From an uncultured bacterium (lineage in GTDB: Bacteria; Bacillota_I; Bacilli_A; RFN20; CAG-826), in the NCBI GenBank assembly GCA_949290395.1, contig CASERQ010000002.1, forward strand, positions 206,079-270,078: a stretch of 64,000 nucleotides of DNA. Direction: 5' to 3'. Made by a program: the position numbers and the translations under genes. Shown one piece after another: positions 34,840 to 52,139 of this stretch. The notes below the pieces were generated by a model. It searched no databases, was not told the DNA's origin, and was given only the letters and a program-made list of their open reading frames with translations. Within the stretch, counting starts at the first letter, position 1. Each line of letters opens with the position of its first letter.

Positions 34840-37386
34840 TTAATAAAGTCTAATATCGAATTTTCTTTCGAATAATCTTGTCTTATCAAGATTGATTCCT
34901 AAATGTAAAACGGTACCGTTTTCATATTTTTTATCCGATTGTATATAGATTGTATTACCTAAAACATCGCAAACTACAAATTTATATTTTCCATAGTCGA
35001 TGTAATCTTTAACAACTGCTTCAATACCATGATCTTGAATAGTATAAGCATCGTGAGCTACTTCAAGTCTAAATAAAGTTACAAATGTTCTAGTTGAGAG
35101 AGCTTGAATAATCTTACTTTCAATGTCTTCATTTACTTTAATGTAATAGCCATTAATCATAAGATAGCCTTGTCTTAAAGCAAAGTTATAAGCATTGTCT
35201 TTTGCTTGATAATCTTTTTCAACATCACTAACTTCTGTTAAAACGACTTTATTAATATCTTCGTTTTTAGCTTTAGCTTCCTTGATTAATTCTTTATCTT
35301 TAGCAAGTCTAGCTTTCTTTTCTTCGAGACCTTGAGCTTTAACTGATTGAAGTTCAGCAAGTGTTGTCTTGATATCAGCATCGCTGTCTTGTTTTAACCA
35401 AGCATCATTATCAGACATAATTGAATTGAATTTATCGTGTAATTCTTTTACATTTTTAATTCTTGCTTCAAATGCATCTCTGACTTCTTTTTCTGTTGCT
35501 TCATCTCTTGCTTTTTCTTCAGCACTTCTCGCATTAAGTTTAGCAATACTATCGTTATAAGCAGCTAAATCAGCATTATATTTTTCTTTTTCTTTAGCAA
35601 TTGCTTCAGTTAAGCCATCTTTAATTTTCTTTTTACCTTCTTTTCCAAGATCACCTTTTTCAAGGTTAAAGGTAGCTTCAGCTCTTAACTTAGCAATATT
35701 ATTTTTCATAGTTTCTTTTAAAGCTTTAGGAACTGTTGTATCAATAGCAATACCTTTTAATGCTTTTCTTTCTTCAGCTTCTAAATCATTAATATGTTCT
35801 TTAACTATGCCATCAATGCTATTTTTAACAAACTTTTTACTTTCGTGAAGTGTTGCAGCACTTGCAAATCCACTAATATATTCATCATATGTCTTAAGTG
35901 GTTCAAGAATAACTTCTTCATCCTTTTCAAGAGAAATCTTTGTGAAATCAATATTAATCTTTACGGTATCACCTACTTTATAATTTTCACCATTAAGTTT
36001 TGTGAAGAAAATTCTGTTATCGATTTCAAGATAGCAAAGTTTTACGTCGTTAACTTCTTCGATATGAGCAATTTTTGCAGGAATATCACCATCAAAGCTA
36101 ATAGCATCACTTGGAACAAGTAAACTTAAATCTTTATTATCAGCAACTTTAATTGCTTCTGGTAAAGGTAAATCAACATTTAAGAAATGTAAGATATTGT
36201 CTTTAACTTCAGCATCGAAAAGATTTAATTCAGGTACACGAGGCATAATGCTATCTTCAGTCTTGTAATCAAAGAAATGAATATGATCAACATCAAAAGC
36301 GGCATCAATAATATCACCAGGTTGAATTCCAAGATAACCTTTTTGGTTCTTAATAATAACTCTAGTTGATGATTCAACATAACCATCGCCATACATATTA
36401 AGATCACCATAAATTAATGTTTCACTTCCTAATTCTTCAAAGTGAGAAACTTTAACTTTAACGATGTTTTTACTCTTTTTAACTACTTCTGGTTCAATTG
36501 AGATATTTTCACATCTTAAGCCAACAATAACTTTCTTCTTTCCGTTAAAGTAAGCTGGTTGAACTTTTAATAATTGATTGAATGGAACATATAAAACATC
36601 ATCACAATAATCAAACTTGATTTCGACGATATCTTTATTTCTCTTTAATGTCGCTTCAAAGAAGTTCATTTGTGGAGTTCCAATAAATCCTGCAACGAAT
36701 TTATTAATTGGATAGTTATAAAGATTTTTTGGCGTATCGATTTGTTGGACACGACCTAATTTCATAACAACAATTCTTGTACCCATTGTCATAGCTTCAG
36801 TTTGATCGTGAGTAACATAAATGAATGTTGTTCCAAGTTGCTTATGTAATTTTGAAATTTCAGCTCTCATTTGAGTTCTGAGTTTAGCATCAAGATTAGA
36901 TAAAGGTTCATCAAGTAAGAAAACTTTTGGATTTCTTAAGATAGCTCTACCTAAAGCAACTCTTTGTCTTTGACCACCAGACATAGCTCTTGGTTTTCTA
37001 TCAAGATATTCTTTAATACCAAGAATGTCAGCAGCCCACATAATTTTTTCATGGATTTCAGCCGCAGGAATGTGTCTTAATTTGAGACCGAAAGCCATGT
37101 TATCATAAACTGTCATATGAGGATAAAGAGCATAGTTTTGGAAAACCATTGCAATATCTCTATCCTTTGGTTCCATATTGTTAACAAGTTTATCACCAAT
37201 GAAAAGTTCGCCAGCAGAAATGTCTTCAAGACCAGCAATCATTCTAAGGGTTGTTGATTTACCACAACCAGAAGGTCCAACAAAGACAATAAATTCTTTG
37301 TCTTTGATTTCCATATTGAAATCACTAACGGCTTTTGTTCCATTTGGATAAACTTTATAAATATGTCTTAAACTTAAATCTGCCAT
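34840..37386 (-). CDS. MalK/MsmK-type sugar ABC ATPase with long C-terminal extension
   Basis: GPSGCGKST, FQNYALYPH, MSGGQRQR, LDEPLSNLDAKLR, YVTHDQ; 848 aa versus about 370 typical. Confidence 0.92.
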   Translation of the reverse strand: MADLSLRHIYKVYPNGTKAVSDFNMEIKDKEFIVFVGPSGCGKSTTLRMIAGLEDISAGELFIGDKLVNNMEPKDRDIAMVFQNYALYPHMTVYDNMAFGLKLRHIPAAEIHEKIMWAADILGIKEYLDRKPRAMSGGQRQRVALGRAILRNPKVFLLDEPLSNLDAKLRTQMRAEISKLHKQLGTTFIYVTHDQTEAMTMGTRIVVMKLGRVQQIDTPKNLYNYPINKFVAGFIGTPQMNFFEATLKRNKDIVEIKFDYCDDVLYVPFNQLLKVQPAYFNGKKKVIVGLRCENISIEPEVVKKSKNIVKVKVSHFEELGSETLIYGDLNMYGDGYVESSTRVIIKNQKGYLGIQPGDIIDAAFDVDHIHFFDYKTEDSIMPRVPELNLFDAEVKDNILHFLNVDLPLPEAIKVADNKDLSLLVPSDAISFDGDIPAKIAHIEEVNDVKLCYLEIDNRIFFTKLNGENYKVGDTVKINIDFTKISLEKDEEVILEPLKTYDEYISGFASAATLHESKKFVKNSIDGIVKEHINDLEAEERKALKGIAIDTTVPKALKETMKNNIAKLRAEATFNLEKGDLGKEGKKKIKDGLTEAIAKEKEKYNADLAAYNDSIAKLNARSAEEKARDEATEKEVRDAFEARIKNVKELHDKFNSIMSDNDAWLKQDSDADIKTTLAELQSVKAQGLEEKKARLAKDKELIKEAKAKNEDINKVVLTEVSDVEKDYQAKDNAYNFALRQGYLMINGYYIKVNEDIESKIIQALSTRTFVTLFRLEVAHDAYTIQDHGIEAVVKDYIDYGKYKFVVCDVLGNTIYIQSDKKYENGTVLHLGINLDKTRLFERKFDIRLY

Positions 37387-37405
37387 ATTTTTTCTCCCTT
37401 ATAAA

Positions 37406-38296
37406 TTAGCCTTTAACAGCTCCACCAGTAACACCTTCAACATAATATCTTTGTAAACAGAAGAAGAATATAACAATAGGAATTGATGTAAAGACTGCTC
37501 CTGCACAGAATCTAGTGAAGTAATGACTTAAATTTTGTCCGTTATTACCTGTTAACCAGTTTTGTAAACCAATAGCAACTGTCCAGTTATCAGCGTTATT
37601 TCCTAATAAATAACTACTCATCATGAAGTCGCCCCATGGAGCAACAAAACTAGTAAGAATAGTGTAAATAATAATTGGTTTTGATAAAGGTAAAATGATT
37701 TTCCAGAAAATAGTATTTCTATTTGCTCCATCAATCATTGCCGCTTCATCAAGTGCATGAGGAACAGTGTCAAAGAAACCTTTAACAATGTAATAGCTCA
37801 TTGCACTACCAGCGATATAAACAAGTATTAATCCAAATGGATTTCCAATCATATTGATTTGTCTTAAAACGTAATAAACAGCAATAAGAGAAAGGAATCC
37901 AGGGAACATACCAATAACAAGAATCATTTTCATGATTCCTTGTCTTCCTTTAAATCTCATTCTTGATAATGCGTAAGATACCATCAAAACAAGAATTGTT
38001 TGGAAGAAACAGGTAATGACTGCAATCATCAATGTTGTAAGATACCATCTAATAAATGGATATTGATCATTAAAATTAAATAATGCAATGTAGTTATCAA
38101 ATGTCCATTCTTCTGGTAATAAATATCCGACAACACCAGTACTTTCACCTCTAAATGATTGAAGTAATAAATAAACGAAAGGGAATACCCAAATTATTGA
38201 AATTAAAACAAGAATTACATAAGTAACTGTATTACTTATGATTCTATTTCTACGTTGATGTCCTTCTTGACGATTTGTTAAATTGAGACGTTTCAT
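37406..38296 (-). CDS. malG: Maltodextrin ABC permease (MalG/MalD-like)
   Basis: KGFFDTVP.ALDEAAMIDGA EAA loop; ends GVTGGAVKG. Confidence 0.88.
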   Translation of the reverse strand: MKRLNLTNRQEGHQRRNRIISNTVTYVILVLISIIWVFPFVYLLLQSFRGESTGVVGYLLPEEWTFDNYIALFNFNDQYPFIRWYLTTLMIAVITCFFQTILVLMVSYALSRMRFKGRQGIMKMILVIGMFPGFLSLIAVYYVLRQINMIGNPFGLILVYIAGSAMSYYIVKGFFDTVPHALDEAAMIDGANRNTIFWKIILPLSKPIIIYTILTSFVAPWGDFMMSSYLLGNNADNWTVAIGLQNWLTGNNGQNLSHYFTRFCAGAVFTSIPIVIFFFCLQRYYVEGVTGGAVKG

Positions 38297-39798
38297 TATT
38301 GGAAATCCTCCTCATTTTTAACAGAGCTTGATCTAGAGTAGAAAATCAAGGAAATAACAGCAACGATAACGAAAACAATAATACCAATGACAGAAGCCAT
38401 CTTGTAGTTGTTTTCATTAACAGTTAACTTATATAACCATGTAACTAAAAGATCGGTATCACCAGCAACATACTTATCTGGATTAACTGGAACGCCACCT
38501 GTTAACAAGAAGATAACGTTGAAGTTATTGATGTTACCAACGAACGATGAAATTAAGCTAGGTCCCATAACGAACATCATATATGGGAGAGTAATGTTAC
38601 AATACATTCTGAATGGGTTTGCACCATCAATCTTTGCTGATTCATATAAATCTTCTGGAATATTCATTAAAATACCTGTACAAGATAAAACTGTGTAAGG
38701 TATACCAACCCAAACGTTGATAATAATAACGAATACTTTAGCCCAAATTGGATCTGTAGCATAAACTAATTTACCCATTCCAAATGATCCAAGTAATGCA
38801 TTAACAATACCTTCAGAAGAGAACATTTGAGAAATTAAAAGTAAGGAAACAAATTGAGGAACAGCAATTGTTGTAATTAAAATTGTTCTCCAAAGTTTTT
38901 TAAATCTAATTCCTTTTTTGTTAATCAAAAGCGCAACAACCATTCCTAAGAAAAAGTTTGTAAAGGTAGCAAAAACTGCCCAAACTAATGTCCAAACAAG
39001 AGCATCAGTAAATGAATAAGCAAATAATGCATTTTGTCCGACAGAATCTCCGCCTAACAAAATATCAAAGTTTTCAAAGCCAACCCAAGTAAATAAATTT
39101 TCAGGTGGCAGGTGTGCTTTATCGTAGTTCGTAAACGCGATAAAAATCATAAAAATTAATGGAACAATAGTAAAAACAACAAGTCCTAACATTGGCAAAG
39201 CGAGTAAAGTCTTGTGATAAGATCTATCAGCTAAAGCCTTTAAATCATCTTTAACGCCATTAACTTTTCCATTAATTGAGGTAATTTGTTGCAAATCGAA
39301 AGCTTGTTTGATGTTTGAATAATATGTATAAGCAAAGCCAATACAAACCAAAATACATATCGTACCATAGAGTAAGATAAGCATTGAATTGTCGCCTTCA
39401 ACTTTGATCCATAATCCATTTGTTTCATCCCAAACTTCAGCTGTAGCAACAGTACCTAACGATCCGAATTGTGAAAGATATTTCCAACCCCAGAAGCCAA
39501 TAAATAACGCAAAAACAATTTCAAAAAGAAGGTATAAAATACCTCTTACATATTGCTTTCTAGCAATTAAGCCAAAACCCATAAACAAAAAAGATAATCT
39601 TGTTTTCCAATCACCAAAAACAAAAGCATCTTTTAAATTTATAAATGGTTGAATTATTTTATTTCCGATTTTTCCGAGTTTTGCAGGGATTTTTTTGAAA
39701 AAGTTCTTTGTTTTACCTGGAAAATCCATAAACCATCTTTTGGTTTTATAGACAATACGGCGAGGTTTAGAAAGACCTAAATAAGATAAATCACTCAT
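38296..39798 (-). CDS. malF: Maltodextrin ABC permease (MalF/MalC-like)
   Basis: IPEDLYESAKIDGA, NINNFNVIFLLT, TDLLVTWLYKLT. Start corrected to MSDLS after GAGGAG. Confidence 0.88.
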   Translation of the reverse strand: MSDLSYLGLSKPRRIVYKTKRWFMDFPGKTKNFFKKIPAKLGKIGNKIIQPFINLKDAFVFGDWKTRLSFLFMGFGLIARKQYVRGILYLLFEIVFALFIGFWGWKYLSQFGSLGTVATAEVWDETNGLWIKVEGDNSMLILLYGTICILVCIGFAYTYYSNIKQAFDLQQITSINGKVNGVKDDLKALADRSYHKTLLALPMLGLVVFTIVPLIFMIFIAFTNYDKAHLPPENLFTWVGFENFDILLGGDSVGQNALFAYSFTDALVWTLVWAVFATFTNFFLGMVVALLINKKGIRFKKLWRTILITTIAVPQFVSLLLISQMFSSEGIVNALLGSFGMGKLVYATDPIWAKVFVIIINVWVGIPYTVLSCTGILMNIPEDLYESAKIDGANPFRMYCNITLPYMMFVMGPSLISSFVGNINNFNVIFLLTGGVPVNPDKYVAGDTDLLVTWLYKLTVNENNYKMASVIGIIVFVIVAVISLIFYSRSSSVKNEEDFQ

Positions 39799-39819
39799 TT
39801 TTCTTCTCCTCAATAGTTT

Positions 39820-39848
39820 TTAAAGGCTCTCAAAAAGAGAGCCTTTAA
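39820..39848 (-). terminator. Intercistronic hairpin after the binding-protein gene
   Basis: TTAAAGGCTCTC-aaaaa-GAGAGCCTTTAA; typical mRNA-stabilising or partial terminator giving excess binding protein. Confidence 0.75.
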
Positions 39849-39863
39849 TTAGAATATGATAAA

Positions 39864-41144
39864 TTAACTAACGATTGTTGTGATGTTTGTTGTTAAGTTA
39901 TTTAATTTCTCTTGTAAATTATCAAGTGTAACTGGATCTTTAAATCCTGGATATCCACAAGCTGTTCCGAAATTTTGCATTGCTGTCCAGAAAGTTGAAG
40001 GAACATTGATTTGTGGTTGAGAAGCTTCTTCAAATTGAGCATTTAATCCACTTAAAGCAACATCAGCTTTAACTTTCTCGTTTTCTTTAGCGACATTGTT
40101 TGATGGTCCATAAGAAAATTCTTCATATCTTTTTAATTGGACATCTTCGCTTGTGATAAATCTAGCGAAAGCATGAGCTAAAGGTTGATTTTCAGAAAGT
40201 GCGTTAACACCAACAAGTTTTGTGCCTAAGAATGTACTCATTCTTGCTTTTGCTCCGTCTTTACCTTCCATCATTGGTAAAAGACCACATCTTACATTTT
40301 CATCTCCCCATGCATCTGTATCGAAAACATAAGTTTTAACAGCGGATGGATAAGAAATGAATGCACCAATTTCTTCCATATGTGCGGATAAGTATTGATT
40401 TAAAATAAGTGATTGATCACCAGAGTTTCCTCCATCAACATATTGGAAACCAGCTGTTTTAGCAAGATTGACCATGAATGTTCCTGCGTTAACACCAGCT
40501 GCACCATTATAATCACATTCAATTTTTGATTCTTTGCCATCGACGTATGTAACATCATATGTTCCACCAAATCCAGAGAAGAATCCATAAGCATACCAAG
40601 CATCACCCATTGGAACTACAAATTTCTTTCCAGCAGCAGCACATTGAGCAGCGACTTCTGCGAATGTTGTATCTTCATCATAATCTGTAACAACAGTTGC
40701 ATCATATGTAAGCATATAACCATTATCAAGAGTCATTGGATAAGCATAAACTTTATCATCTTGTGGGTTTGATGCAGATTCAACAGCTAATGGATCATTA
40801 TTATCTGTAACATAAGATAAATTTGTTCCGCCTAATTGGTTTAAAGCACCAACGTTAATTAAATTGAATAATTGGTCGTTAGCAAATGTAAAGACATCTG
40901 CTCCACCAGCAACATCTTTTGAAATATTTGTATAAGCATCACCTTCGGAACATGTTCCAAATTCAATTGTGATATCTTTATACTCTTCATTTGATGCCTT
41001 GAATTCTTCGAATAATTTTTCATAGAATTCTTTGTGTTCAACAGGTGCCCAGACTACTAAGTCAGCTCTGCCTCCACAGCTTGATAATCCTGCAGCAGCA
41101 AGTAAAGCAACTGCGGATAATCCTAAAAGTTTTACTTTTTTCAT
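39864..41144 (-). CDS. malE: Maltodextrin-binding lipoprotein (MalE/MalX-like)
   Basis: Lipobox GLSSC, ADVFTFANDQ, YAYP, FLGTKLVGVN; first gene before the permeases. Confidence 0.85.
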   Translation of the reverse strand: MKKVKLLGLSAVALLAAAGLSSCGGRADLVVWAPVEHKEFYEKLFEEFKASNEEYKDITIEFGTCSEGDAYTNISKDVAGGADVFTFANDQLFNLINVGALNQLGGTNLSYVTDNNDPLAVESASNPQDDKVYAYPMTLDNGYMLTYDATVVTDYDEDTTFAEVAAQCAAAGKKFVVPMGDAWYAYGFFSGFGGTYDVTYVDGKESKIECDYNGAAGVNAGTFMVNLAKTAGFQYVDGGNSGDQSLILNQYLSAHMEEIGAFISYPSAVKTYVFDTDAWGDENVRCGLLPMMEGKDGAKARMSTFLGTKLVGVNALSENQPLAHAFARFITSEDVQLKRYEEFSYGPSNNVAKENEKVKADVALSGLNAQFEEASQPQINVPSTFWTAMQNFGTACGYPGFKDPVTLDNLQEKLNNLTTNITTIVS

Positions 41145-41220: not shown

Positions 41221-42732
41221 TTAAATACGTGAGTAATTATCAACCCGCCTAACAAGAATTTCTGTCTTGTCTTTTTCTTTTTCTTTAAACAATTTTTCAT
41301 CTAATCTCCAACTCCAATTATCATCTGATAAAGTTGAAGGGAAATTAATACGGGCTTCTTTTCCTAATGTGAATAAATCCATTACAGGAATAATTGCACT
41401 TTTTGCTTTTGAAGCAAAAGTAAGTTCGCATATAACTGTTGTTAGTTGTTCGTTATTAAATTTTCTTGTAAATGGAACATCAAGTTTTAAGCATTCTTCT
41501 TCTAATATATTTAACATTTTTTCTTTTTCTTCGCTATTTAAATCATCGATAAATTGTTTTGTAGTTTTAGAATCATGTGTTCCTGAATAAGCGAAGAAAT
41601 TTGGTGTGTAATTAGATGGTCTCCAAATGTTTTTTGGGTCTTCATCTTCAAATGCTTGAGAAACAATTTTCATACCTGGATAGCCAGTTTTTTTCATAAG
41701 TTCGAGGAATTTATCATCAATCATGCCTAAATCTTCAGCAACAATTGGATAATCAAGTTTGTCTTTAAACAAGTCAAATCCTGGACCATCTACCCAAGTT
41801 CCATTTCTTGCGGTTTTGTCTCCAAATGGAATTGCAAAATATCTACTAAAACCTCTGAAGTGATCAATACGGATTAAATCATAAAGTTTTAAAGCATTAT
41901 TAATTCTTTCGTTCCACCATTTATAATTAGTCTTTTTGTGATATGCCCAATTATATAAAGGATTACCCCAAAGCTGTCCATCTTCACTGAAACAATCTGG
42001 TGGCACTCCAGCTACTTTTTTAGGATTTAATCTCTCATCTAATTCAAATAAATAAGGGTATTTCCAAACTTCAACTGAATCATAAGCAACATATATTGGT
42101 AAATCACCCATAATTTTAATGCCGTTTTTATTAGCATAATCTTTTACTAAACGATATTCATTTAAGAATTCAAATTGAGTCCACATATAGAAAAGATATT
42201 CATCTTTATGAAGTGTTTTGATTTCTTTTTCAATTGATGGATCGTATTTTCTATATTTTTCATCCCATTCATACCATGGCCTTAAAGAATGCATATCTTT
42301 TAAAACCATAAAAACAGAAAAATCACTAAAATTAGTTCCTTCTTTTAAGAATTTAACAAAATCTGGTGATGTTTTGTCGTAACGAGAAAAAGCTAATTTT
42401 AGTATTCTTAATTTGTTATTAAAGATTGCCCCATAATCAATTCTAGAAGGATTTTCTCCCCAAGAAACGCTATCAACTTCTTCTTCATTTAAGAGGTTTT
42501 TCTCAATTAAAGTTTCAAAATCAATGAAGTAATAATTAAGCGCATAATTAGATGGAGATTGATATGGTGAATTGCCAAAACTAGTAACGTTTAATGGTAA
42601 GATTTGCCAAATTGAAAGTTCTGATTTCTTTAAAAAATCAATCAATTTGAATGCTGATTTTCCAAGCGTTCCAATTCCATATTTTCCCCAAAGAGAAGAG
42701 ACTGGAAATAATAGACCTGCGTTTCTTTTCAT
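41221..42732 (-). CDS. malQ: 4-alpha-glucanotransferase (GH77), catalytically intact
   Basis: SPYQSPS, AGVPPD.FSEDGQLWGNP, RIDHFRGF (D290), AEDLG (E333), GTHD. Confidence 0.95.
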   Translation of the reverse strand: MKRNAGLLFPVSSLWGKYGIGTLGKSAFKLIDFLKKSELSIWQILPLNVTSFGNSPYQSPSNYALNYYFIDFETLIEKNLLNEEEVDSVSWGENPSRIDYGAIFNNKLRILKLAFSRYDKTSPDFVKFLKEGTNFSDFSVFMVLKDMHSLRPWYEWDEKYRKYDPSIEKEIKTLHKDEYLFYMWTQFEFLNEYRLVKDYANKNGIKIMGDLPIYVAYDSVEVWKYPYLFELDERLNPKKVAGVPPDCFSEDGQLWGNPLYNWAYHKKTNYKWWNERINNALKLYDLIRIDHFRGFSRYFAIPFGDKTARNGTWVDGPGFDLFKDKLDYPIVAEDLGMIDDKFLELMKKTGYPGMKIVSQAFEDEDPKNIWRPSNYTPNFFAYSGTHDSKTTKQFIDDLNSEEKEKMLNILEEECLKLDVPFTRKFNNEQLTTVICELTFASKAKSAIIPVMDLFTLGKEARINFPSTLSDDNWSWRLDEKLFKEKEKDKTEILVRRVDNYSRI

Positions 42733-42756
42733 AATATAAAAAAATCCTTAAAATTT

Positions 42757-42798
42757 TGTAAGCGCTTACATTTTAAAATAAGTATTTTTAGATGTCAA
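42757..42798 (-). promoter_or_regulatory. malQ promoter with overlapping cre/LacI operator
   Basis: TTGACA-17-TAAAAT (42770-42798) with the perfect palindrome TGTAAGCGCTTACA (42757-42770) over the predicted start site. Confidence 0.85.
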
Positions 42799-43096
42799 AC
42801 ACAAAAAATGCGATAATTATGCACCTAATTTTAATTATATAAATTAAACTAAATAAATATCACATTTTTTAATTAATTTTTTACATATATTCAAAAAAAC
42901 TTCGATGGTTATCGTATTTTTTTATTTAAAATTTAATATAAAATAAGATAGATTATTATCGAATTTTTAAAAATCTATACAAAATTATAAAAAATCTCTA
43001 CTTAAATTTATTTTTTTAAATCGAGTTAAAAAATTAGTGACAAACGTGAAAAAAATTAAAAAAATCAAATAAGAAAATAAAAGAAAAACTACTTTT

Positions 43097-44611
43097 CTAT
43101 TTTGCACTACGATTATATTTAACTAAAATCTCTTTAATAGAATTTTTAAGATGCGTTGTTAAATCACTCCACAAAAATCTATATGTCCAGTTTTCTTCAT
43201 TAACAGTTCCTGGTACGTTCATTCTAGCTTCTTTCCCTTGAAAAAGAATATCTGACATCATTAAAGTTACGTGATTTGCTTTACTCGCCAAGGCGACTTC
43301 AATTGCAAGACGCGATTTCTCAAATAAAGAAGCTCCCTCAATAACTTCTACTCCAAGTTTATGTGCTTCTTCTTTAATACGTTGATCACCAAGTTTAATC
43401 ATTTCAGGATCTAAAGTCTCATAAGTCCCTTTAATAGTATTATTATCGTGATCTCCTAAATAAAGATAAACATTTTCACTAATATTTGAAGGAAGTAATT
43501 CTTCTTTATAGAATTTTGTATCAAACATGTTTCTAAAGAAAATTCTAAGGCCTGGCAAGCCACTTTCTTTAACAAAGTTATCGACTTTTTCAGAATACAT
43601 TCCAGCATCGTTTGCTATTAAATTTAAGTTTGATTTAATGTCTTCAATAAACTTAATTCCAGGACCTTTTAGATAAATTCCTTTTTTAGCATTTTTACTT
43701 CTAAAAGGAACAGCGTAAACTTCAACAAATCCTCTAAAATGGTTTAATTTTGTTCGATCAAAAAAACTTTTAGAAAGATTTAAACGGTACTTCCGCCATT
43801 TATAATTATTAAGTTCCATGTACTCCCAATCATAAAGAGGATAGCCCCATTTTTGTCCATCTTTTCTAAAATAATCTGGCGGGAAGCCAACAACATAAGT
43901 AGGAATATTCCTTTTATCAATCAAAAATAACTCTGGACTCATATACATTGCATCAGAGTTATAACTTAAAAAGTGAGGAACTTCACCAATTATATCGATG
44001 TGTTTACTTTTAGCATAAGCATGTAATTTATCCCATTGTTTTATAAAAATAAAAGATAAAAATAAATAATAATCTATGAGATCTGCATGCTTTTTGGTAT
44101 ATTCTTCCTTGATTTCTTCAGAATAATATCTGTCTTCAAGCCTAAAGTTATACCAAGAATTATTGTTATTTAATGATTTGATGGTTCTAAATAAAGCATA
44201 TTGAAAACGATAGTTGTTATTTTTGAATTCTAAGAATTCTTTATCTTCTTTGTTAAATCTACGAAAAGCGATTTTGAGAAGATTTTCTTTGATTATTTTT
44301 AAAGAAGCATAATTTACTTTTCGAGGAGATTGCGTAAAATTAATCCCTGTAAAATCACGACTTGTAAGTAAGCCATCTTTTATAAGTTCATCAAAATCAA
44401 TAAGTAAATAATTTAAGCTAAAAGCACTAGGAATATCATAAGGAGAATTTCCTCCTCCTATATCTTCAATAGGTAAAATTTCCCAATATGAAAATCCAGT
44501 CTCACTTAAAAAATCTATAAATTTAAATGCATTTTCTCCTAATGTTCCAATTCCATATTTCCCAGGAAGCGAACTTATTGCAAGTAATACGCCACATTCT
44601 TTTTGACTCAT
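43097..44611 (-). CDS. GH77 amylomaltase paralogue lacking nucleophile and acid/base residues
   Basis: Full-length MalQ-like (GFPPDYF..DGQKWGYP), but KLNHFRGF and IANDAG replace RIDHFRGF and VAEDLG. Confidence 0.9.
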   Translation of the reverse strand: MSQKECGVLLAISSLPGKYGIGTLGENAFKFIDFLSETGFSYWEILPIEDIGGGNSPYDIPSAFSLNYLLIDFDELIKDGLLTSRDFTGINFTQSPRKVNYASLKIIKENLLKIAFRRFNKEDKEFLEFKNNNYRFQYALFRTIKSLNNNNSWYNFRLEDRYYSEEIKEEYTKKHADLIDYYLFLSFIFIKQWDKLHAYAKSKHIDIIGEVPHFLSYNSDAMYMSPELFLIDKRNIPTYVVGFPPDYFRKDGQKWGYPLYDWEYMELNNYKWRKYRLNLSKSFFDRTKLNHFRGFVEVYAVPFRSKNAKKGIYLKGPGIKFIEDIKSNLNLIANDAGMYSEKVDNFVKESGLPGLRIFFRNMFDTKFYKEELLPSNISENVYLYLGDHDNNTIKGTYETLDPEMIKLGDQRIKEEAHKLGVEVIEGASLFEKSRLAIEVALASKANHVTLMMSDILFQGKEARMNVPGTVNEENWTYRFLWSDLTTHLKNSIKEILVKYNRSAK

Positions 44612-44701
44612 GACTAAATTCTATAAACTTTTCTTTTAAAAAGCATTAAAAAGTATTTTTTAAAATTGATTTTGACTCTTCTCTTTACTAACATAATATC
44701 T

Positions 44702-45988
44702 ATGAAAAACTATTTAAAAAATCAAATTATTTATCAAGTTTACGTTAGAAACTTCACTAAGGAAGGTACTTTCAATGCATTAAAAGCAAAACTTGATCAC
44801 ATCAAAGCTTTAAAAACCGATATCGTTTATCTTTTACCTGTTTCTCCAATTGGAGAAATTAATAGAAAGGGTGATTTAGGTTCTCCTTATTCAATTAAAG
44901 ATTATACTAAAATCAATCCAGAGCTAGGAACACTAGAAGATTTTAAAGATCTCATCTCTGAGACTCATAAAAAAGGTATGAAGATCATGATTGATATAGT
45001 CTATAATCACACTTCTTGCGATTCATGGATTAAAGAAAATCACCCTGAATGGATGTTCCATAAAGATGGTAAGATTACTGGAAAAGTTCCTGTTTGGAGT
45101 GATGTATATGATTTAGACTACTCTCATCCTGAACTTATCAAATATCTAGTTGATGTAATTGAATACTACTGCTCTTTAGGCGTCGATGGATTTAGATTTG
45201 ACGTCGCAAGTTTAATTACTAAAGAATTCTTCATTGCTTTAAGAAAAATGCTTGATGAAAAATATCCTGAAACCATTTTACTTGCAGAAAGCGTTCATCC
45301 AGGATTTGTTGATTCTTTAAGAAGTCAAAATTATAACGCTCTTAGTGATTCAGAGCTTTATCAATACGCTTTCGACCTTCTTTATCCATATAATAGTTAT
45401 GAAAATTTACGTAACTATTTAGATACAAAAGATGTTAGATGGCTTGATTATTATAAATTCTCAGTCTTGCTTGAAGACAGCATGACTCAAGATTTTGCTC
45501 TTCGTATTAGAGGCTATGAAAATCATGACCAAAAAAGATTCTATGAATTTACTCATGACTTTACTTTAATGAGAAATCTTGCTGCTCTTGCCCCATTTAT
45601 GAAAGGGCCACTCTTTATTTACAATGGACTTGAAACAACAGCCGATCACATGAATAGTCTTTTTACAAAAGACGTCATGAGCTGGGATATCGACAAAGAT
45701 TGGTATGACTTCATTCTTAAACTTTCTGAATATAAGAAAGACGAAAAGAATCTTGAATTAAATACAACTTCTATTCTTTTAACAAAAGGCGAAAATGTTG
45801 CTTTAAAAAATACCTACAAAGATGAAAGTTACTCTTATGGATTATTCTCTTTAACTGGTAAAGAAGAATTAATTGAAGATGAGGCTTTAGTAGATGGAGA
45901 ATATGTTGATTATTTAACAAACAAAACTTATCTAGTTAAAGATCACAAAATAAAAGTTAAAGAACCACTTTATCTCTTTAAAAAGTAA
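44702..45988 (+). CDS. Cytoplasmic GH13 alpha-amylase-family glycosidase
   Basis: GSPYSIKDY, DIVYNH, GFRFDVAS, LAES, ENHD (catalytic triad intact). Start corrected to MKNYL. Confidence 0.92.
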   Translation: MKNYLKNQIIYQVYVRNFTKEGTFNALKAKLDHIKALKTDIVYLLPVSPIGEINRKGDLGSPYSIKDYTKINPELGTLEDFKDLISETHKKGMKIMIDIVYNHTSCDSWIKENHPEWMFHKDGKITGKVPVWSDVYDLDYSHPELIKYLVDVIEYYCSLGVDGFRFDVASLITKEFFIALRKMLDEKYPETILLAESVHPGFVDSLRSQNYNALSDSELYQYAFDLLYPYNSYENLRNYLDTKDVRWLDYYKFSVLLEDSMTQDFALRIRGYENHDQKRFYEFTHDFTLMRNLAALAPFMKGPLFIYNGLETTADHMNSLFTKDVMSWDIDKDWYDFILKLSEYKKDEKNLELNTTSILLTKGENVALKNTYKDESYSYGLFSLTGKEELIEDEALVDGEYVDYLTNKTYLVKDHKIKVKEPLYLFKK

Positions 45989-45989
45989 T

Positions 45990-46415
45990 ATGCGTTTAAA
46001 ATTATTTCGTATTTTTAATTTGGCTGCTAACATAGTCTCTTTAGCAGTTTCCATAATCGTCTTTGTTTTTTCGATTATTCACGATGAAGATCCATTCCAT
46101 ATGGCAGCAATTGCTTGTGGTCTTGCAGTAGTTTTTTCAATATTTTTGCTTGCTGTTAGTATTAAAAATATTCATAAACAAACATGTATGCTAGTTGATC
46201 TAGCATTCAACAAAGACTTCTCAAAAAACAAAGTTGCTTTTTATGGAGCAATTGTTTTGCTTGTATTAAGTGTACTAATGGTAATTGGTGGAATTTTACT
46301 AATTACTTTAGTCAAACAATATCTAATTGCCTGTCCATTAATGGAGTTAGGGAATATTATTTTCTTTAATATTATTTCTTTCTTTGTCTATATGTATGTC
46401 GAACTTCACTACTAA
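45990..46415 (+). CDS. Hypothetical 4-TM membrane protein
   Basis: Four hydrophobic segments; starts 1 nt after the amylase stop. Confidence 0.75.
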   Translation: MRLKLFRIFNLAANIVSLAVSIIVFVFSIIHDEDPFHMAAIACGLAVVFSIFLLAVSIKNIHKQTCMLVDLAFNKDFSKNKVAFYGAIVLLVLSVLMVIGGILLITLVKQYLIACPLMELGNIIFFNIISFFVYMYVELHY

Positions 46416-46704: not shown

Positions 46705-47628
46705 CTATTTTCTAACTTTGACAACATCTCCTTCTTCAAGTTCACCTATTAATAAAGATGAATTTTCATCATGATTTTTATAATTTTCTTTTACTTTATT
46801 TTCATCAAAATTCGCGTAGCAATATTTACATAAAGATAAACAAGAATTGTAATCTCCTATATCCACTGTTTCTACGCACTTACAAGTAAACTTATCATTT
46901 CCTTTTGTTGTTTTCTTAAATTTAACTACTTTGTTTAACTTTTTCATTAGACTATTTGCGTGTTCTAATGATAAGCAGGCACCTTGTTTAAAACCATATT
47001 CACTTAAATCATTACGTTCGCCACAAGTAAATATTTCAAAATTATTGTCTTTAGCTATCTCATAAAAGTTTTTACCAATTACTTCATAATCTTTTTCAGT
47101 GAAAGGTAAAATACGTAGGAATTTATCATTATTTTTTAAAACATTTTTATATAAATCAATAAATGATATAACAATAGTATTAGCATAGCCTTTTAAACTT
47201 TCGCATAACTTTTTAAATGCTTTTATATGATATGAAATTGTATATTTTTCACTTTTAAAGATTGGATCAAAGCGTATAAAAATATTTTCTTTTCCATACC
47301 TTAAAGATAATTTTTTTACGCTTTCTATCACTTCTTTTTTGATTTTGCCTATACGAGGTTCTATGTCTTCTTTATAAGGCGTAATTGTAATATGAAAAAC
47401 TAAAGGAATTCCTTTTGTTAAGTTATCTAACTCATCTAAATAAGGAAAAAGTGGAATAGGATTTTTAGTACAAAACATAATAATATCCACGTCTTCCATA
47501 TAAATTCTTGATACAAGTCTTCTATTATAAGGATTTCTTGTATCAAAAAATCCAGCTTTTAGTCGATTAATAAGCCATTTTGGATAGTAAGTTAAAATAT
47601 CAGTTCTGCCACTAATAAATAAGACCAT
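46705..47628 (-). CDS. DUF1848 family (radical-SAM-related) protein
   Basis: ISGRTDI, FCTKNP, RFDPI, C-terminal CKC..DIG.YNSC...CKYCYAN. Confidence 0.9.
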   Translation of the reverse strand: MVLFISGRTDILTYYPKWLINRLKAGFFDTRNPYNRRLVSRIYMEDVDIIMFCTKNPIPLFPYLDELDNLTKGIPLVFHITITPYKEDIEPRIGKIKKEVIESVKKLSLRYGKENIFIRFDPIFKSEKYTISYHIKAFKKLCESLKGYANTIVISFIDLYKNVLKNNDKFLRILPFTEKDYEVIGKNFYEIAKDNNFEIFTCGERNDLSEYGFKQGACLSLEHANSLMKKLNKVVKFKKTTKGNDKFTCKCVETVDIGDYNSCLSLCKYCYANFDENKVKENYKNHDENSSLLIGELEEGDVVKVRK

Positions 47629-47721: not shown

Positions 47722-50700
47722 CTAACTCTTGTAATATTTAAATGAACAAGATTTTTCTGGATCATCAAAAAGAATAAAAATGGAATAGGTGCCTTTCTGT
47801 AAATGATATATTTTGAATTCTTTTCCGCTATCAGGATCGCTCCAAACTCGATCATAGTCAGGTAACAAATTGTCATCACTATTTTTTAAAGCATCGTAAA
47901 AAACAAAATCTGCAGCATTATTATATTCAAATGTATAATCTCCCTCTTCTTGAATTTCTAATTCGACAACAAATGCTCCTAAATTATAAGAATCTTCAAT
48001 AACAATTTCACTATTTTCTTCTATTTTCACACACTCTATAACATCATACTTTAAAACATACTCTTTTTCGTTATAGTTAATATAATTTTCCTTTACTCCT
48101 GGGGTAGTTAAATCAATTGCAGAAACCAAAGTTGTTGACGGAATGTAGGTATAATTATAAAAATGACCATCTATTAATCCACCATCAAGATTTATGTATT
48201 CATAAACATAAGAATCTACGCCTATATAAATATCATACGGATAATCAATACCAATATCTTGGTTTTGTACAAAAGATGGAAAATACAGAAACGCATCTTC
48301 TTCTTGAATAATTTCTACGTAGATATAGCTAGGAATATCTTTTTCAAAAGAAGTTGTTTCTACAACATCAATATAAATGTCGACAGGATTCCCAAAGTAG
48401 CCATTTAATGTACTTGTAAAAACTACTGTAGAACCAACATCTGAATAACTTGGGTTAAAGTCATTAAAACTCTCTTGCGTAAAGTAAAATTGTTCAATAA
48501 CCTTTACTTTCTTTGTTAATCGTCCACTTGCATCTCTATATAAACCTCTAATTCCATAATAAACATCAACATAATCTTCTAAAAACATGCCGCTATTATA
48601 ATCATAAGGTGTATTTACATAGTATTTAGGTTCTCTATCTCCAGACAATAATTCATTCACGTAGTATTCAAACTTAAATGTTTTATTCGTCGTTTGATCA
48701 AAATATGTTGTTTGAACTTTCCCTGCAATTGAAGTATCTAAATGATTAGAAAAATCCGTTTTATTTAAATTAAATGCATATGATTCCGTTTTTATCGAAC
48801 ATTCAATGCCAAATTCGTTTTGGATTACTGTCATCTCGTATCCATAATAGTATAATTCATCATCTACAGGTACAAACTGATAAAAAGATTTATTCTCTAA
48901 ACAATATTCTTTTGTTATAACCTCTGAAACATAAACTTTTGTTAGGAAGTTATTTCCATTAGTATCTTTAAAAGTCATTGTTGTTAGACCTGGCTTTGAC
49001 GTATCTAATTCAGTTAAAGAATCGATAGAATTAAAATCCAAATATATAAATCTTTCACCAAAAAATTCGTCCTCAAAAACTATTGTTATAGTAAGGTTGG
49101 AAATCATGAGGTCCTCTACATTTTGCTCCTCATACAAATAGTTTCCAGGTGTATAAATTTTACCATTAATAATTTGTTCATCTTCGTAAACAAAATAAAC
49201 TATATATAGATATACTCCTTCAAATTCCAAAAAAGCACTTTTTAAACCTGTTGTTGATAAATCTAAATTAAATTGACCTAACGAAATCGTATAGTACTCA
49301 CTATTTAAGCCAGACCCAAAGATTAAATCAATGTTTTCTAAATCATTAATGCTAATTCTACTTCTGTTAAAACATAAAGTCTGTGAATATAATGAGGATA
49401 TTGGCCATATATAACTATAACTTAATAAATTTTTAAATTTATCTGGAATAGTCAAACTATAATATGGTGAATTATTAACTACATAATAAAATTGAGACAC
49501 TTCAAATCCTTTATAATAAAGAAAGCCAATTCCAGAATGAACATATGTCGTATCTACTCCCACGACTGAGTATAGACTTTTTAAACTTTCATCCATAGAA
49601 ATAAGAAAATGAGATAATGGATCCGAATTCAGTGAAAAACTAATAACATCGCCATAATAACATAACTGCACTTCATTATTATTTTTTTCAAAGTTCTTAA
49701 GAGTGTCGGTCAAATTAGAAATATAATCTTCAAAATAGTTTTTTATTGAATCCGTATTTTGCTCTTCTCCTACTAGACCTTGCAAGTCTTCAGCAAGAGA
49801 AAAAAGTTCTGCGATACGAAATTCAATTACGTCAATATTTGCAAAATTATAACTGTTATAAAACATATTGTAATTATTAGGAATTACATTGAAAATAACC
49901 TTAGCAAGAATGTTTAAAATAATTTCAAAACCGTCAACAAATTTAACAAAAAAATCGTCATTTTGCATTAATAACTGAAAATTTGAAGAATTTTTTAATT
50001 CTAGAAACGAGCGCAAATAATATTCGGATTTATTTATATTGAGAGAATTATTAATCAAATCAGAAATAAAAGTTAAAATCCCGTCTGAGTGCGTATCATT
50101 TACTACATAATCAGACAAAACTTTTAGTGAATAATAAAAAGATTTAATATCATTTTCATCTTTTGTGTCAAAAAAACTAAATGTCTCTTTAAGTGCATCA
50201 AAACTAATATAAAAACCACAAATTTTCAAACAATATCCAATAATTACACCTAAGTTTTCATTCTTTAATAAAGAAAGAAATGAATCATAACCAGGTAGAA
50301 TATCATTTATTATTTTAAAGATAACTTTCAGATTACTTCTTGATAATTTATAATCATCAGGATTTTCGAATTTTTCTAAATCTTCCATTGTAAAATTATC
50401 AAATAGAAGGCGAGTAAAGTCATAACTTATTTTAGAAAATTTAAATAAATTATTTTCAGAAACATTACTTGAAGGCAACTTCATCGAACCACTTTCAATA
50501 TTCGGATTTATAAAACTTCCGAAATAATTTGCTGCCTCAAAATTTCCTTCGTTTTCATAATATGTTTTCAGCATTTTACTATCTTTATACAAAGCATCAA
50601 TTGAATTGATAATGTAGAGCATCTGCCAATTCAAGTAATAATACATTATTTGATTAAAAAGATTCTCTGGAACAGAAGATGATAAATTTGAAATTGCTCC

Positions 50701-52056
50701 GGCAAAATAATTACCTTCGTATGAACTAGAAGCAAATAGATAGCTAAAACATGAAACCACTGTTTTTAATGACTCTAAAGGCATATCAATTTTGCTTATT
50801 ACACAATCATAAAAATCACAAGCAAAATAGCTATTATTGGTTAATGAAGCATCATAATTCATGCCAAAAACTTCATTAACAGTATTTAAATAATCTGCAT
50901 AACTTATTCGATTCCCAGAATCCGGATATGGCACCGCATCTATTTCATAACCTTTTTCAAATTCTGCTACTGGATCAAAAGGGGCTTCACTAAACCCAAT
51001 ACTAATAATGTTTTCACCTTCGTTTGGATAAATCTTATATAAATTATCTGAAATTTGATTGTAATCACTAGGAATGTAAATGTAATTTGTTTGAAAATTT
51101 TTATTTGGTTCAATTGTTAAAGTAACTTCTTCTCCCACTTCGCCTTCCGTTTTATCAACACTTGCGCTACCCAGACTTTCATCATATTCAAGCGCGATTT
51201 CAAAATATCTTATTGGTTTAACAAGCATATTAAAAGTTACAAATAAGGTGTTAGTTCCTCTTATTGGCGTAATTTTATATTCATTAATACTTGTTAATTC
51301 AAGTTGACTGCCATTAAAGTAAACTCCTTCGACTTCATAACCTTCATTTGGAACTACATTAAAAGTTACTTCCTTCGTTCCATCTGTGTAACCTGATGTA
51401 TTTTCTAAATTTATTGTTCCATATTTTTCGTTATAGACTAAATCGATATTAAAGTTTTCAAATTCTTCAATGATATTTCCGCCTTCAAATTCAACTTTAA
51501 CTAAGTTATCACCTTTAACGGGTTTAAAAGTAAATTCTAAATTTTCTTTGCTGAATTCAACATCATTAACAAGAATCGAAGAAACTTCATTACCTCCATA
51601 AGGTTTAACACTTACATTGACAAAAGTTTCAAGATAGTTAGACCCTTTTACTGGGCTCACCCTAACTTCGCCTTTAGTAGTATCATAATTAGTTAAAATT
51701 TGATATGAATTATCTACCGTTGGATCTACATATGGTTTATAGAAAGCAACAATAATTTCATTTTTTCCTTTTTGAGCCGTAAAAGAAATACTTTCGCTAA
51801 TTTCAGCTTTTATTCCATTAATTTTAACTAAACTAATCTCATAGCCGGCATTAGGTTTTATCTCTAAAGTAATAGTTTCACCTGGCTGACATTCAGTTTT
51901 TGAAGCCGTTACACTTCCTAAACTTTTATCATAGTTTAATTCAATTATAGTTTTTTCTTCTTGCGTTTCATTATTCGCACATCCACTTATACTAGGCAAA
52001 ATTATAGTTCCAAACGTTAGTGATAAAATTAAATTTAACAATAGTTTTCGTCTCAT
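47722..52056 (-). CDS. Giant surface lipoprotein, paralogue 1
   Basis: Lipobox ISGC; four ~80-aa N-terminal repeats (LxYDxxxGxV...VTLxIxPxxGY); helical core; C-terminal DTSxxG Ig-like repeats. Start 52056 fits SD spacing better than 52062. Confidence 0.82.
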   Translation of the reverse strand: MRRKLLLNLILSLTFGTIILPSISGCANNETQEEKTIIELNYDKSLGSVTASKTECQPGETITLEIKPNAGYEISLVKINGIKAEISESISFTAQKGKNEIIVAFYKPYVDPTVDNSYQILTNYDTTKGEVRVSPVKGSNYLETFVNVSVKPYGGNEVSSILVNDVEFSKENLEFTFKPVKGDNLVKVEFEGGNIIEEFENFNIDLVYNEKYGTINLENTSGYTDGTKEVTFNVVPNEGYEVEGVYFNGSQLELTSINEYKITPIRGTNTLFVTFNMLVKPIRYFEIALEYDESLGSASVDKTEGEVGEEVTLTIEPNKNFQTNYIYIPSDYNQISDNLYKIYPNEGENIISIGFSEAPFDPVAEFEKGYEIDAVPYPDSGNRISYADYLNTVNEVFGMNYDASLTNNSYFACDFYDCVISKIDMPLESLKTVVSCFSYLFASSSYEGNYFAGAISNLSSSVPENLFNQIMYYYLNWQMLYIINSIDALYKDSKMLKTYYENEGNFEAANYFGSFINPNIESGSMKLPSSNVSENNLFKFSKISYDFTRLLFDNFTMEDLEKFENPDDYKLSRSNLKVIFKIINDILPGYDSFLSLLKNENLGVIIGYCLKICGFYISFDALKETFSFFDTKDENDIKSFYYSLKVLSDYVVNDTHSDGILTFISDLINNSLNINKSEYYLRSFLELKNSSNFQLLMQNDDFFVKFVDGFEIILNILAKVIFNVIPNNYNMFYNSYNFANIDVIEFRIAELFSLAEDLQGLVGEEQNTDSIKNYFEDYISNLTDTLKNFEKNNNEVQLCYYGDVISFSLNSDPLSHFLISMDESLKSLYSVVGVDTTYVHSGIGFLYYKGFEVSQFYYVVNNSPYYSLTIPDKFKNLLSYSYIWPISSLYSQTLCFNRSRISINDLENIDLIFGSGLNSEYYTISLGQFNLDLSTTGLKSAFLEFEGVYLYIVYFVYEDEQIINGKIYTPGNYLYEEQNVEDLMISNLTITIVFEDEFFGERFIYLDFNSIDSLTELDTSKPGLTTMTFKDTNGNNFLTKVYVSEVITKEYCLENKSFYQFVPVDDELYYYGYEMTVIQNEFGIECSIKTESYAFNLNKTDFSNHLDTSIAGKVQTTYFDQTTNKTFKFEYYVNELLSGDREPKYYVNTPYDYNSGMFLEDYVDVYYGIRGLYRDASGRLTKKVKVIEQFYFTQESFNDFNPSYSDVGSTVVFTSTLNGYFGNPVDIYIDVVETTSFEKDIPSYIYVEIIQEEDAFLYFPSFVQNQDIGIDYPYDIYIGVDSYVYEYINLDGGLIDGHFYNYTYIPSTTLVSAIDLTTPGVKENYINYNEKEYVLKYDVIECVKIEENSEIVIEDSYNLGAFVVELEIQEEGDYTFEYNNAADFVFYDALKNSDDNLLPDYDRVWSDPDSGKEFKIYHLQKGTYSIFILFDDPEKSCSFKYYKS

Positions 52057-52139
52057 ATTCATACCTCTTTTAAAAAGTAAAAACTAGTTTTATCATTTTT
52101 TATTCAACACTTAATACATTTTTCGCATCGTATACTTTA

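Follow-up and report, generated by a model that had tools for sequence, protein, structure and literature searches.

A conserved GH77 paralogue with a dead catalytic site at a bacterial maltodextrin locus: a probable selected pseudoenzyme that may bind glucan

Why should a bacterium retain, next to the gene for a canonical amylomaltase, a second full-length copy from which the catalytic residues have gone? This question is raised by a stretch of 64,000 nucleotides (the window) from an uncultured bacterium (GTDB lineage Bacteria; Bacillota_I; Bacilli_A; RFN20; CAG-826; assembly GCA_949290395.1, contig CASERQ010000002.1, positions 206,079 to 270,078 of the forward strand), in which two paralogues of glycoside hydrolase family 77 (GH77), here called MalQ1 and MalQ2, are encoded in tandem. 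The dead site of MalQ2, its conservation, its single origin, the selection acting on the gene, the fold of the protein and the synteny of the locus are established by the evidence presented here. As to function, we favour, with somewhat better than even confidence, the reading that MalQ2 is a selected, non-catalytic pseudoenzyme that would bind glucan as an accessory of the cytoplasmic maltodextrin pathway; it probably holds sugar chains and leaves them unprocessed. All sequences compared are from metagenome-assembled genomes, and the two genes in question are the following.

43097..44611, minus strand: MalQ2, a GH77 paralogue with a dead canonical active site; unbroken open reading frame, 504 residues (P0001)
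41221..42732, minus strand: MalQ1, a canonical active-type GH77 protein of 503 residues (P0002), with R288, D290, E333 and D387

A first-pass annotation of this DNA had described tandem paralogues of 503 and 504 residues and an unbroken frame for MalQ2, and the open reading frames confirm this. The two proteins are 35% identical across 478 residues (E 1e-106), and both match the Pfam family Glyco_hydro_77 (PF02446) over its full length, MalQ2 with 377.2 bits and MalQ1 with 505 bits (cut-off 25), whereby residues 11-484 of MalQ2 align to positions 2-464 of the 465 in the model. MalQ2 also passes the malQ equivalog model TIGR00217 (220.7 against a cut-off of 205.65), and it fails the NCBIfam subfamily model NF011080 (406.9 against a cut-off of 477), which MalQ1 passes.

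The deviation of MalQ2 from its family is found at the active site, where three short stretches of the gene are of particular importance.

43742..43750, minus strand: K288-L289-N290 (AAA TTA AAC), replacing R-I-D, i.e., the invariant Arg and the nucleophile Asp
43610..43612, minus strand: N334 (AAC, from the codon reading) at the position of the acid/base Glu
43445..43453, minus strand: D387-H388-D389, in which the His and the third catalytic Asp are kept

According to a review on amylomaltases (PMC8465469), which uses T. thermophilus numbering, the catalytic residues are D293, E340 and D395; Y59, D213, R291 and H394 are generally conserved, W258, H294, L342 and N464 belong to the core of the cleft, and P247, P248, D249, G255 and Q256 make up the 250s loop. 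These positions were mapped on MalQ2 by motif alignment and by alignment to the S. agalactiae and Aquifex structures. MalQ1 displays the motifs R288-I-D290-H-F-R-G, A-E333-D-L-G and T-H386-D387, and the corresponding motifs of MalQ2 are K288-L-N290-H-F-R-G, A-N334-D-A-G and G-D-H388-D389-N. Lost from MalQ2 are D293 (now N290), E340 (now N334) and R291 (now K288). Kept are D395 and H394 (H388-D389), H294 (H291), N464 and P466 (N465 and P467 of the 460s loop), and the 250s loop with P244-P-D-Y-F, G252-Q, W255 and P258. The first-pass annotation had read RIDHFRG, AEDLG and THD in MalQ1 and KLNHFRG and ANDAG in MalQ2, had placed N290 at 43742-43744 and N334 at 43610-43612, both encoded by AAC, and had noted that MalQ2 keeps PPDYF..DGQ.WG.P and HDN (we find PPDYF..DGQKWGYP and HDN), all of which is correct; furthermore, the Asp and Glu that it took to be the GH77 nucleophile and acid/base match D293 and E340 of the review (PMC8465469).

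Is the dead site shared by homologues of MalQ2? A word-indexed protein search gave 5030 matches among 8000 scored candidates, of which the best 120 were listed. Among these, the homologues at 43-69% identity (P0003-P0057, 55 sequences) have Asn (52/55) or Ser (3/55) in place of the nucleophile and Ser, Asn, Asp or Ala in the acid/base column. The listed full-length matches at 42% identity or less carry R-x-D-H and A-E without exception (63/63), and one further match is a fragment without this region. When the listed matches were pooled with the genes from the genomes of relatives, 139 distinct full-length sequences were obtained, 63 with a dead site and 76 of the active type, which compare as follows.

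Nucleophile column (D293): dead-site clade N 59, S 4; active type D 76/76
R291 column: dead-site clade K 51, E 6, R 3, M 2, V 1; active type R 76/76
Acid/base column (E340): dead-site clade S 37, N 21, D 3, A 2; active type E 76/76
T393 column: dead-site clade N 60/63 (MalQ2 itself has Asp, D387); active type T 76/76
Tyr at the F217 equivalent: dead-site clade F 61/63; active type Y 75/76

Seven residues, H291, H388, G252, Q253, D246, N465 and P467, are invariant among the 63 dead-site sequences, and D389 is present in 62 of them. The nucleophile is likewise replaced by Asn or Ser in all ten full-length orthologues from the genomes of relatives. The first-pass annotation had considered that orthologues might retain the Asp and Glu, which is not the case, as the dead state is found in 63 distinct homologues; since these share the same state, a sequencing slip is ruled out. 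Its proposal that two amide substitutions were selected stands for the nucleophile (Asn in 59 of 63), but not for the acid/base position, where Ser (37) outnumbers Asn (21) and Asp (3) and Ala (2) also occur. The acid/base position is non-catalytic, and an amide is not conserved there. That annotation also did not contain the replacement of Arg by Lys (51/63), of Thr by Asn before the His-Asp pair (60/63) and of Tyr by Phe (61/63).

An exhaustive HMMER search among 1.84 billion cluster representatives (50%-identity clusters) yielded 8908 matches, of which the best 150 were examined. The six active-site columns read R-D-H-E-H-D in 146 of these 150. Because the columns are almost invariant across the family, the double substitution is far from what chance drift would produce in an ordinary member. 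The dead-site clade has a sole representative among the best 150, P0053, which scores 110 bits above the next match. Deviant catalytic columns are also seen in three others of the best 150, namely P0154 (M-S-S-E-H-N), P0223 (R-N-H-E-H-D) and P0262 (E to D), and each may mark a separate loss of catalysis in another part of GH77.

With respect to the origin of the dead site, a FastTree phylogeny of 70 rows placed all dead-site sequences on one side of a single branch with a support of 100 and a stem of 0.53, and a quick IQ-TREE run under LG+G4 (41 rows, with 20 signature columns removed) recovered the same clade with a value of 100 in the Shimodaira-Hasegawa-like approximate likelihood ratio test (SH-aLRT). 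In the FastTree phylogeny the clade stands beside the MalQ1 clade of the genus itself, a weak placement (support 42). One sub-branch (P0036-P0043; L024 8003-9676, plus strand) has open reading frames of 556-557 residues that are about 50 residues longer at the N terminus; this surplus may be genuine or may stem from a start codon called too far upstream.

The dead-site gene was verified in 11 of the 25 sampled species of the window's genus, the window's own genome included and two contig-end fragments in G010 left outside the count. A search with the clade profile across 151 genomes of the family (48 genera) gave scores of at least 625 bits solely in the window's genus (5 of 6 genomes), and the two newly checked sequences, two further orthologues, were again of the N type. 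Outside the genus, no dead site was found in 6 of the 11 genomes with matches, including the five best (529-545 bits), while the remaining five lie at 420-427 bits; all six checked GH77 matches have R-I-D-H and A-E-D. The dead-site proteins hence have a single origin and are, as verified, restricted to one genus. The simplest history would be a tandem duplication of malQ, followed by the loss of catalysis in the promoter-proximal copy. In genus members without the dead copy, the best GH77 match is an active-type malQ (8 of 8 loci checked), and in one of these, G022, the single locus with the GH13 neighbour in view, this active malQ is divergent from the gene for GH13, the α-amylase-like neighbour described below.

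Has the gene been maintained since it lost its catalytic residues? Codon alignments were made for the orthologues of 11 genomes, and the ratio of non-synonymous to synonymous change (dN/dS, omega) was calculated according to Nei and Gojobori (NG86) for the 14 genome pairs with more than 50% identity in MalQ2. The values are rough, as the proportion of synonymous differences (pS) is 0.50-0.69 and dS near saturation.

MalQ2: omega 0.12-0.45
MalQ1: omega 0.17-0.33
GH13: omega 0.13-0.44

Between G013 and G024, the closest pair, MalQ2 has 83% identity and an omega of 0.12, compared to 72% and 0.17 for MalQ1 and 71% and 0.23 for GH13. All ten full-length orthologues from the genomes of relatives are open frames without internal stops. 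Purifying selection on MalQ2 is as strong as on its enzymatic neighbours. The view of the first-pass annotation that the gene was selected rather than decayed is thus upheld, with orthologues that keep both the dead site and an intact frame and with dN/dS values nowhere near 1. MalQ2 therefore presents the traits of a pseudoenzyme, in that it has an active homologue in the same genome, has lost essential residues, and is under purifying selection across species.

The fold of MalQ2 was predicted by AlphaFold2 with the alignment of the clade, which gave a mean predicted local distance difference test score (pLDDT) of 93.4 and a predicted template modelling score (pTM) of 0.92. In Foldseek, the model matched the S. 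agalactiae amylomaltase with acarbose (6m6t) with a template modelling (TM) score of 0.93 and a root-mean-square deviation of 2.1 over some 510 columns, 1tz7 with a TM score of 0.90, and the Thermus enzymes with 0.91. The model accordingly resembles a GH77 (β/α)8 barrel with B subdomains and without a C domain. We asked how far the cleft is conserved within the dead-site clade. Column entropy averages 0.65 bits at the 29 positions that the review assigns to the cleft, as opposed to 1.53 at the other 475, and in 10000 random sets of 29 positions none was as low (0/10000); for the active enzymes, the values are 0.28 bits in the cleft and 1.83 elsewhere. The relaxation of the cleft in the clade is concentrated at the acid/base loop and at the equivalents of the Arg, D213, Y59 and the secondary-site Y54.

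Some residues have become characteristic of the clade. When a position is called clade-fixed if its residue reaches at least 85% in the dead-site clade and at most 10% in the active enzymes, there are eleven, F40, E44, R85, D155, L158, D160, H213, F214, N290, R304 and N387. Six of these (E44, H213, F214, N290, R304 and N387) lie at predicted barrel strand ends or at most three residues after them, i.e., on the predicted catalytic face. Position 44 is Glu (E44) in 98% of the clade and Gln in 99% of the active enzymes; in the clade, Ile is replaced by H213 in 94%, Thr by N387 in 95%, Gly by R304 in 86% and Leu by K254 in 83%.

On the reading that we favour, MalQ2 would derive from a tandem duplicate of malQ that lost the machinery for double displacement, with Asn in place of the nucleophile Asp, Ser or Asn in place of the acid/base Glu and Lys in place of the invariant Arg; the protein has been kept under purifying selection while the genus radiated. 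The residues that hold glucose in the cleft are retained, namely Pro, Asp, Phe, Gly, Gln and Trp of the 250s loop, the His-Asp pair and the His that follows the nucleophile, together with the Asn-x-Pro motif in the 460s loop. The protein would act in a lectin-like manner, binding α-1,4-glucan or maltodextrin in the canyon of the former active site, where the chain would be neither cleaved nor transferred. Presumably expressed from a transcription start of its own, beside GH13 and upstream of the operon of active malQ and transporter, it might hold or buffer chains or present them to MalQ1 and GH13 in the turnover of maltodextrin and glycogen. Both the binding of a ligand and any effect on the neighbouring enzymes are inferred.

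A precedent for such binding exists among engineered proteins. The T. aquaticus amylomaltase D293A/D395N was crystallised with a 34-mer cycloamylose along its cleft (PDB 5jiw; PMC8465469). There, removal of the nucleophile carboxylate leaves the binding of a long α-glucan in place, and MalQ2 carries the loss of this carboxylate in a natural form. It differs from the mutant, however, in that its changes are natural and conserved, are accompanied by K288, N387, F214, E44 and H213, and leave the third Asp in place. Compared to the Thermus-type amylomaltase or MalQ (6m6t, 1tz7, 1cwy), MalQ2 is of the same length, belongs to the same Pfam family over the whole protein, has the same predicted fold (TM 0.90-0.93), keeps the motifs of the 250s and 460s loops, the post-nucleophile His and the His-Asp pair, and is encoded in a maltodextrin utilisation locus. 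What sets MalQ2 apart is the loss of the nucleophile Asp, of the acid/base Glu and of the invariant Arg, and its place in a clade of its own on a long stem.

Several observations weigh against a glucan-binding role. The gene is patchy in its genus and hence dispensable, since it was verified in only 11 of 25 species. A run search listed no RNA sequencing runs containing the locus (four DNA runs contain 0.86-0.96 of its sampled words). Within the clade, the equivalents of E340, D341 and L342 have entropies of 1.35, 2.44 and 1.24 bits, and that of the secondary-site Tyr54 is variable as well (2.73 bits; Gly in MalQ2). With the acid/base loop relaxed and the Tyr54 equivalent variable, part of the canonical contact surface for glucan is therefore not maintained. 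Furthermore, the fixed polar replacements Q to E44, I to H213, L to K254 and G to R304 could signify a changed ligand or new chemistry, and the place of the clade-fixed residues on the catalytic face is judged from predicted strand ends.

What, then, do the surroundings of MalQ2 say about its role? The locus comprises the following features besides the two malQ genes.

44612..44701: spacer of about 90 base pairs between the divergent MalQ2 and GH13 genes
44666..45988, plus strand: cytoplasmic α-amylase-like protein of glycoside hydrolase family 13 (GH13), about 428 residues if the start is the ATG at 44702; catalytic motifs intact
42733..43096: AT-rich spacer of 364 base pairs between MalQ2 and MalQ1
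42757..42798, minus strand: strong sigma-70-like promoter, TTGACA-17-TAAAAT, 11 of 12, upstream of MalQ1 and abutting a palindrome
34840..41144, minus strand: maltodextrin-type ATP-binding cassette (ABC) transporter downstream of MalQ1
39864-41144, minus strand: sugar-binding protein of the transporter operon
38296-39813 and 37406-38296, minus strand: two permeases of the transporter operon
34840-37386, minus strand: MalK-like ATPase of 848 residues; UgpC/MalK models match residues 1 to about 378

The closest solved structure for the GH13 protein is 3dhu (E 3.6e-93). The gene layout agrees with the earlier description of MalQ2 as divergent from the GH13 gene; that description also gave MalQ2 a promoter of its own, here taken as putative. 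Because MalQ2 is the first gene on its strand after this divergent neighbour, its promoter is required to lie in the spacer of about 90 base pairs. Promoter-like sites are not enriched in the region (25 found as compared to 32 expected from shuffles), and the best one in the spacer scores 9 of 12. A scan of the spacer between MalQ2 and MalQ1 called no terminator. A perfect palindrome of 14 base pairs (42757-42770) lies directly after the near-consensus promoter upstream of MalQ1 and presumably resembles an operator of the LacI/CcpA type; no such palindromic site was found in the spacer between MalQ2 and GH13. The genome has a single LacI-family gene (G000:C4:212765-212902).

The order GH13, MalQ2, MalQ1 and transporter recurs among relatives: GH13 adjoins the dead-site gene in 9 of 10 of their loci (7 divergent, 2 convergent), and MalQ1 is directly downstream of it in 7 of 10. 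Genes for a glucan phosphorylase, for a glycogen synthase and for a third GH77 protein, of the active type, are likewise present in the genome. This third GH77 protein (L032 6048-7601, plus strand, G000:C3), at a different locus, has 517 residues with R-I-D-H and A-E-D intact and sits on a very long branch of 1.5 changes per column. A more extended array is found in G019 (L022, G019:C14:184000-203000), comprising MalQ1, the dead-site MalQ2, GH13, a second active MalQ and a second GH13.

Other features of the region were noted in passing. The last approximately 470 residues of the MalK-like ATPase match no Pfam family, and a search with the last 376 alone (34840-35970) gave nothing significant; the corresponding ATPase of G017 has 394 residues, and several other relatives end the operon with a second GH13 of about 510-540 residues. 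Two base pairs after GH13, there is an open reading frame of 141 residues (45990-46415, plus strand) with a sub-threshold match to DUF202 (20.6 bits, cut-off 23.4), and G008 has a similar small frame after GH13 (L023 6458-6892; 28% identity). Beyond the GH13 unit follow a DUF1848 protein (46705-47628, minus strand; 273.7 bits) and a frame of 1446 residues (47722-52062, minus strand).

The conserved tight adjacency raises the possibility that MalQ2 is a regulatory or structural subunit that acts by contact with MalQ1 or GH13 and tunes their activity or the length of their products. We consider this unlikely, though it deserves the most weight among the alternatives; it overlaps with the glucan-binding reading and differs from it in what carries the function. 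The first-pass annotation had put forward a maltodextrin-binding sensor, a scaffold or a regulatory subunit, all of which are putative roles. Besides the neighbourhood in 9 of 10 and 7 of 10 loci, it is favoured by the situation in G011, where the dead-site gene is still with GH13, while malQ1 is on another contig and the transporter elsewhere. Moreover, GH77 proteins can oligomerise, as a homodimer in the case of plant DPE1 and as a homotetramer in that of the Aquifex enzyme, but the same source describes four bacterial amylomaltases as monomers (PMC4705983). A role at an interface only would let the cleft drift, yet the cleft is the most conserved part of the protein. A complex prediction for MalQ1 (5-503) with MalQ2 (4-504), with the controls not folded, gave a score of 0.00 and a mark of 0.32 and counts neither for nor against a contact.

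Pseudoenzymes of α-glucan metabolism in plants offer precedents for a subunit (PMC12218847, PMC12046210 and PMC8774843). Like ISA2, the partner of ISA1, and BAM9, the activator of AMY3, MalQ2 is a paralogue, in its case probably inactive, kept by selection in the same pathway as its active relatives. However, ISA2 and BAM9 are eukaryotic proteins of GH13 and GH14 with experimentally shown partners, whereas MalQ2 is a bacterial GH77 protein whose partners are putative.

A further alternative, which we rate as more doubtful still, is that MalQ2 is a re-tooled enzyme or binds another, possibly anionic, ligand, for instance by means of Glu44 and His213 together with His388-Asp389. In this case, the GH77 scaffold would have been rebuilt on Glu44, His213, Lys254, Arg304, Asn290 and Asn387, with His388-Asp389 retained, for a reaction that dispenses with the Asp nucleophile of clan GH-H or as a cytoplasmic sensor of a different, possibly anionic, ligand derived from glucan, which seems equally doubtful. 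The clade-specific residues are nearly invariant and at the predicted catalytic face, two acidic residues have been lost and basic ones gained around the site, and the long stem of 0.53 would fit a rapid phase of change that then gave way to stasis. However, Ser, Asn, Asp and Ala all occur in the acid/base column, and the column adjacent to it is the most variable of the cleft, which is unlike a tuned catalytic centre. Furthermore, we know of no member of clan GH-H that works without an Asp nucleophile, and a re-tooled scaffold, if true, would be a first for this clan.

Another group of deviant GH77 proteins is the Borrelia type, in which otherwise invariant positions are substituted, among them the Arg two positions ahead of the nucleophile, which is Lys; in the Borrelia enzyme, which is active, the catalytic triad is complete. 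MalQ2 differs from these proteins in lacking two of the three triad residues and in its unrelated lineage, a gut genus of the Bacillota. We rejected an active variant of the Borrelia type, as two triad residues are gone in MalQ2. Borrelia-type amylomaltases are named as a group in PMC8465469, citing Kuchtova & Janecek 2015.

Finally, recent strain-specific decay of a redundant malQ into an incipient pseudogene, or an error of sequencing or assembly, is highly improbable and was rejected by the orthologue survey, for although the genome has two other GH77 genes with intact sites, hence redundancy, and the gene is absent from about half of the sampled species of the genus, the same state is shared by 63 distinct sequences, down to 43% identity, that form one clade with omega values of 0.12-0.45, without stops in ten full-length orthologues, with a confident predicted fold, and with 0.86-0.96 of the words of the locus in four DNA runs.

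In this context, it is of interest that in plants the regulation of starch turnover by conserved inactive paralogues of glycoside hydrolases is well established. For GH77, our full-text searches found no report of a pseudoenzyme; they did not cover Kuchtova & Janecek 2015 or Table S2 of PMC8465469, either of which may list GH77 proteins with incomplete machinery. Within the same scope, no conserved inactive glycoside hydrolase paralogue was reported in bacterial maltodextrin metabolism.

The dead-site proteins also bear on how genomes are read. Databases name them as active 4-alpha-glucanotransferase, a source label carried, for example, by the clade member from a metagenome-assembled genome of Candidatus Onthovivens. 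As MalQ2 passes TIGR00217 and as the sources name such proteins in this manner, metabolic reconstructions credit these genomes with too many active MalQ enzymes. If MalQ2 is indeed a natural, selected amylomaltase that traps its ligand, it would provide a ready-made maltodextrin-binding scaffold and a handle on how gut bacteria with small genomes manage their cytoplasmic α-glucan.

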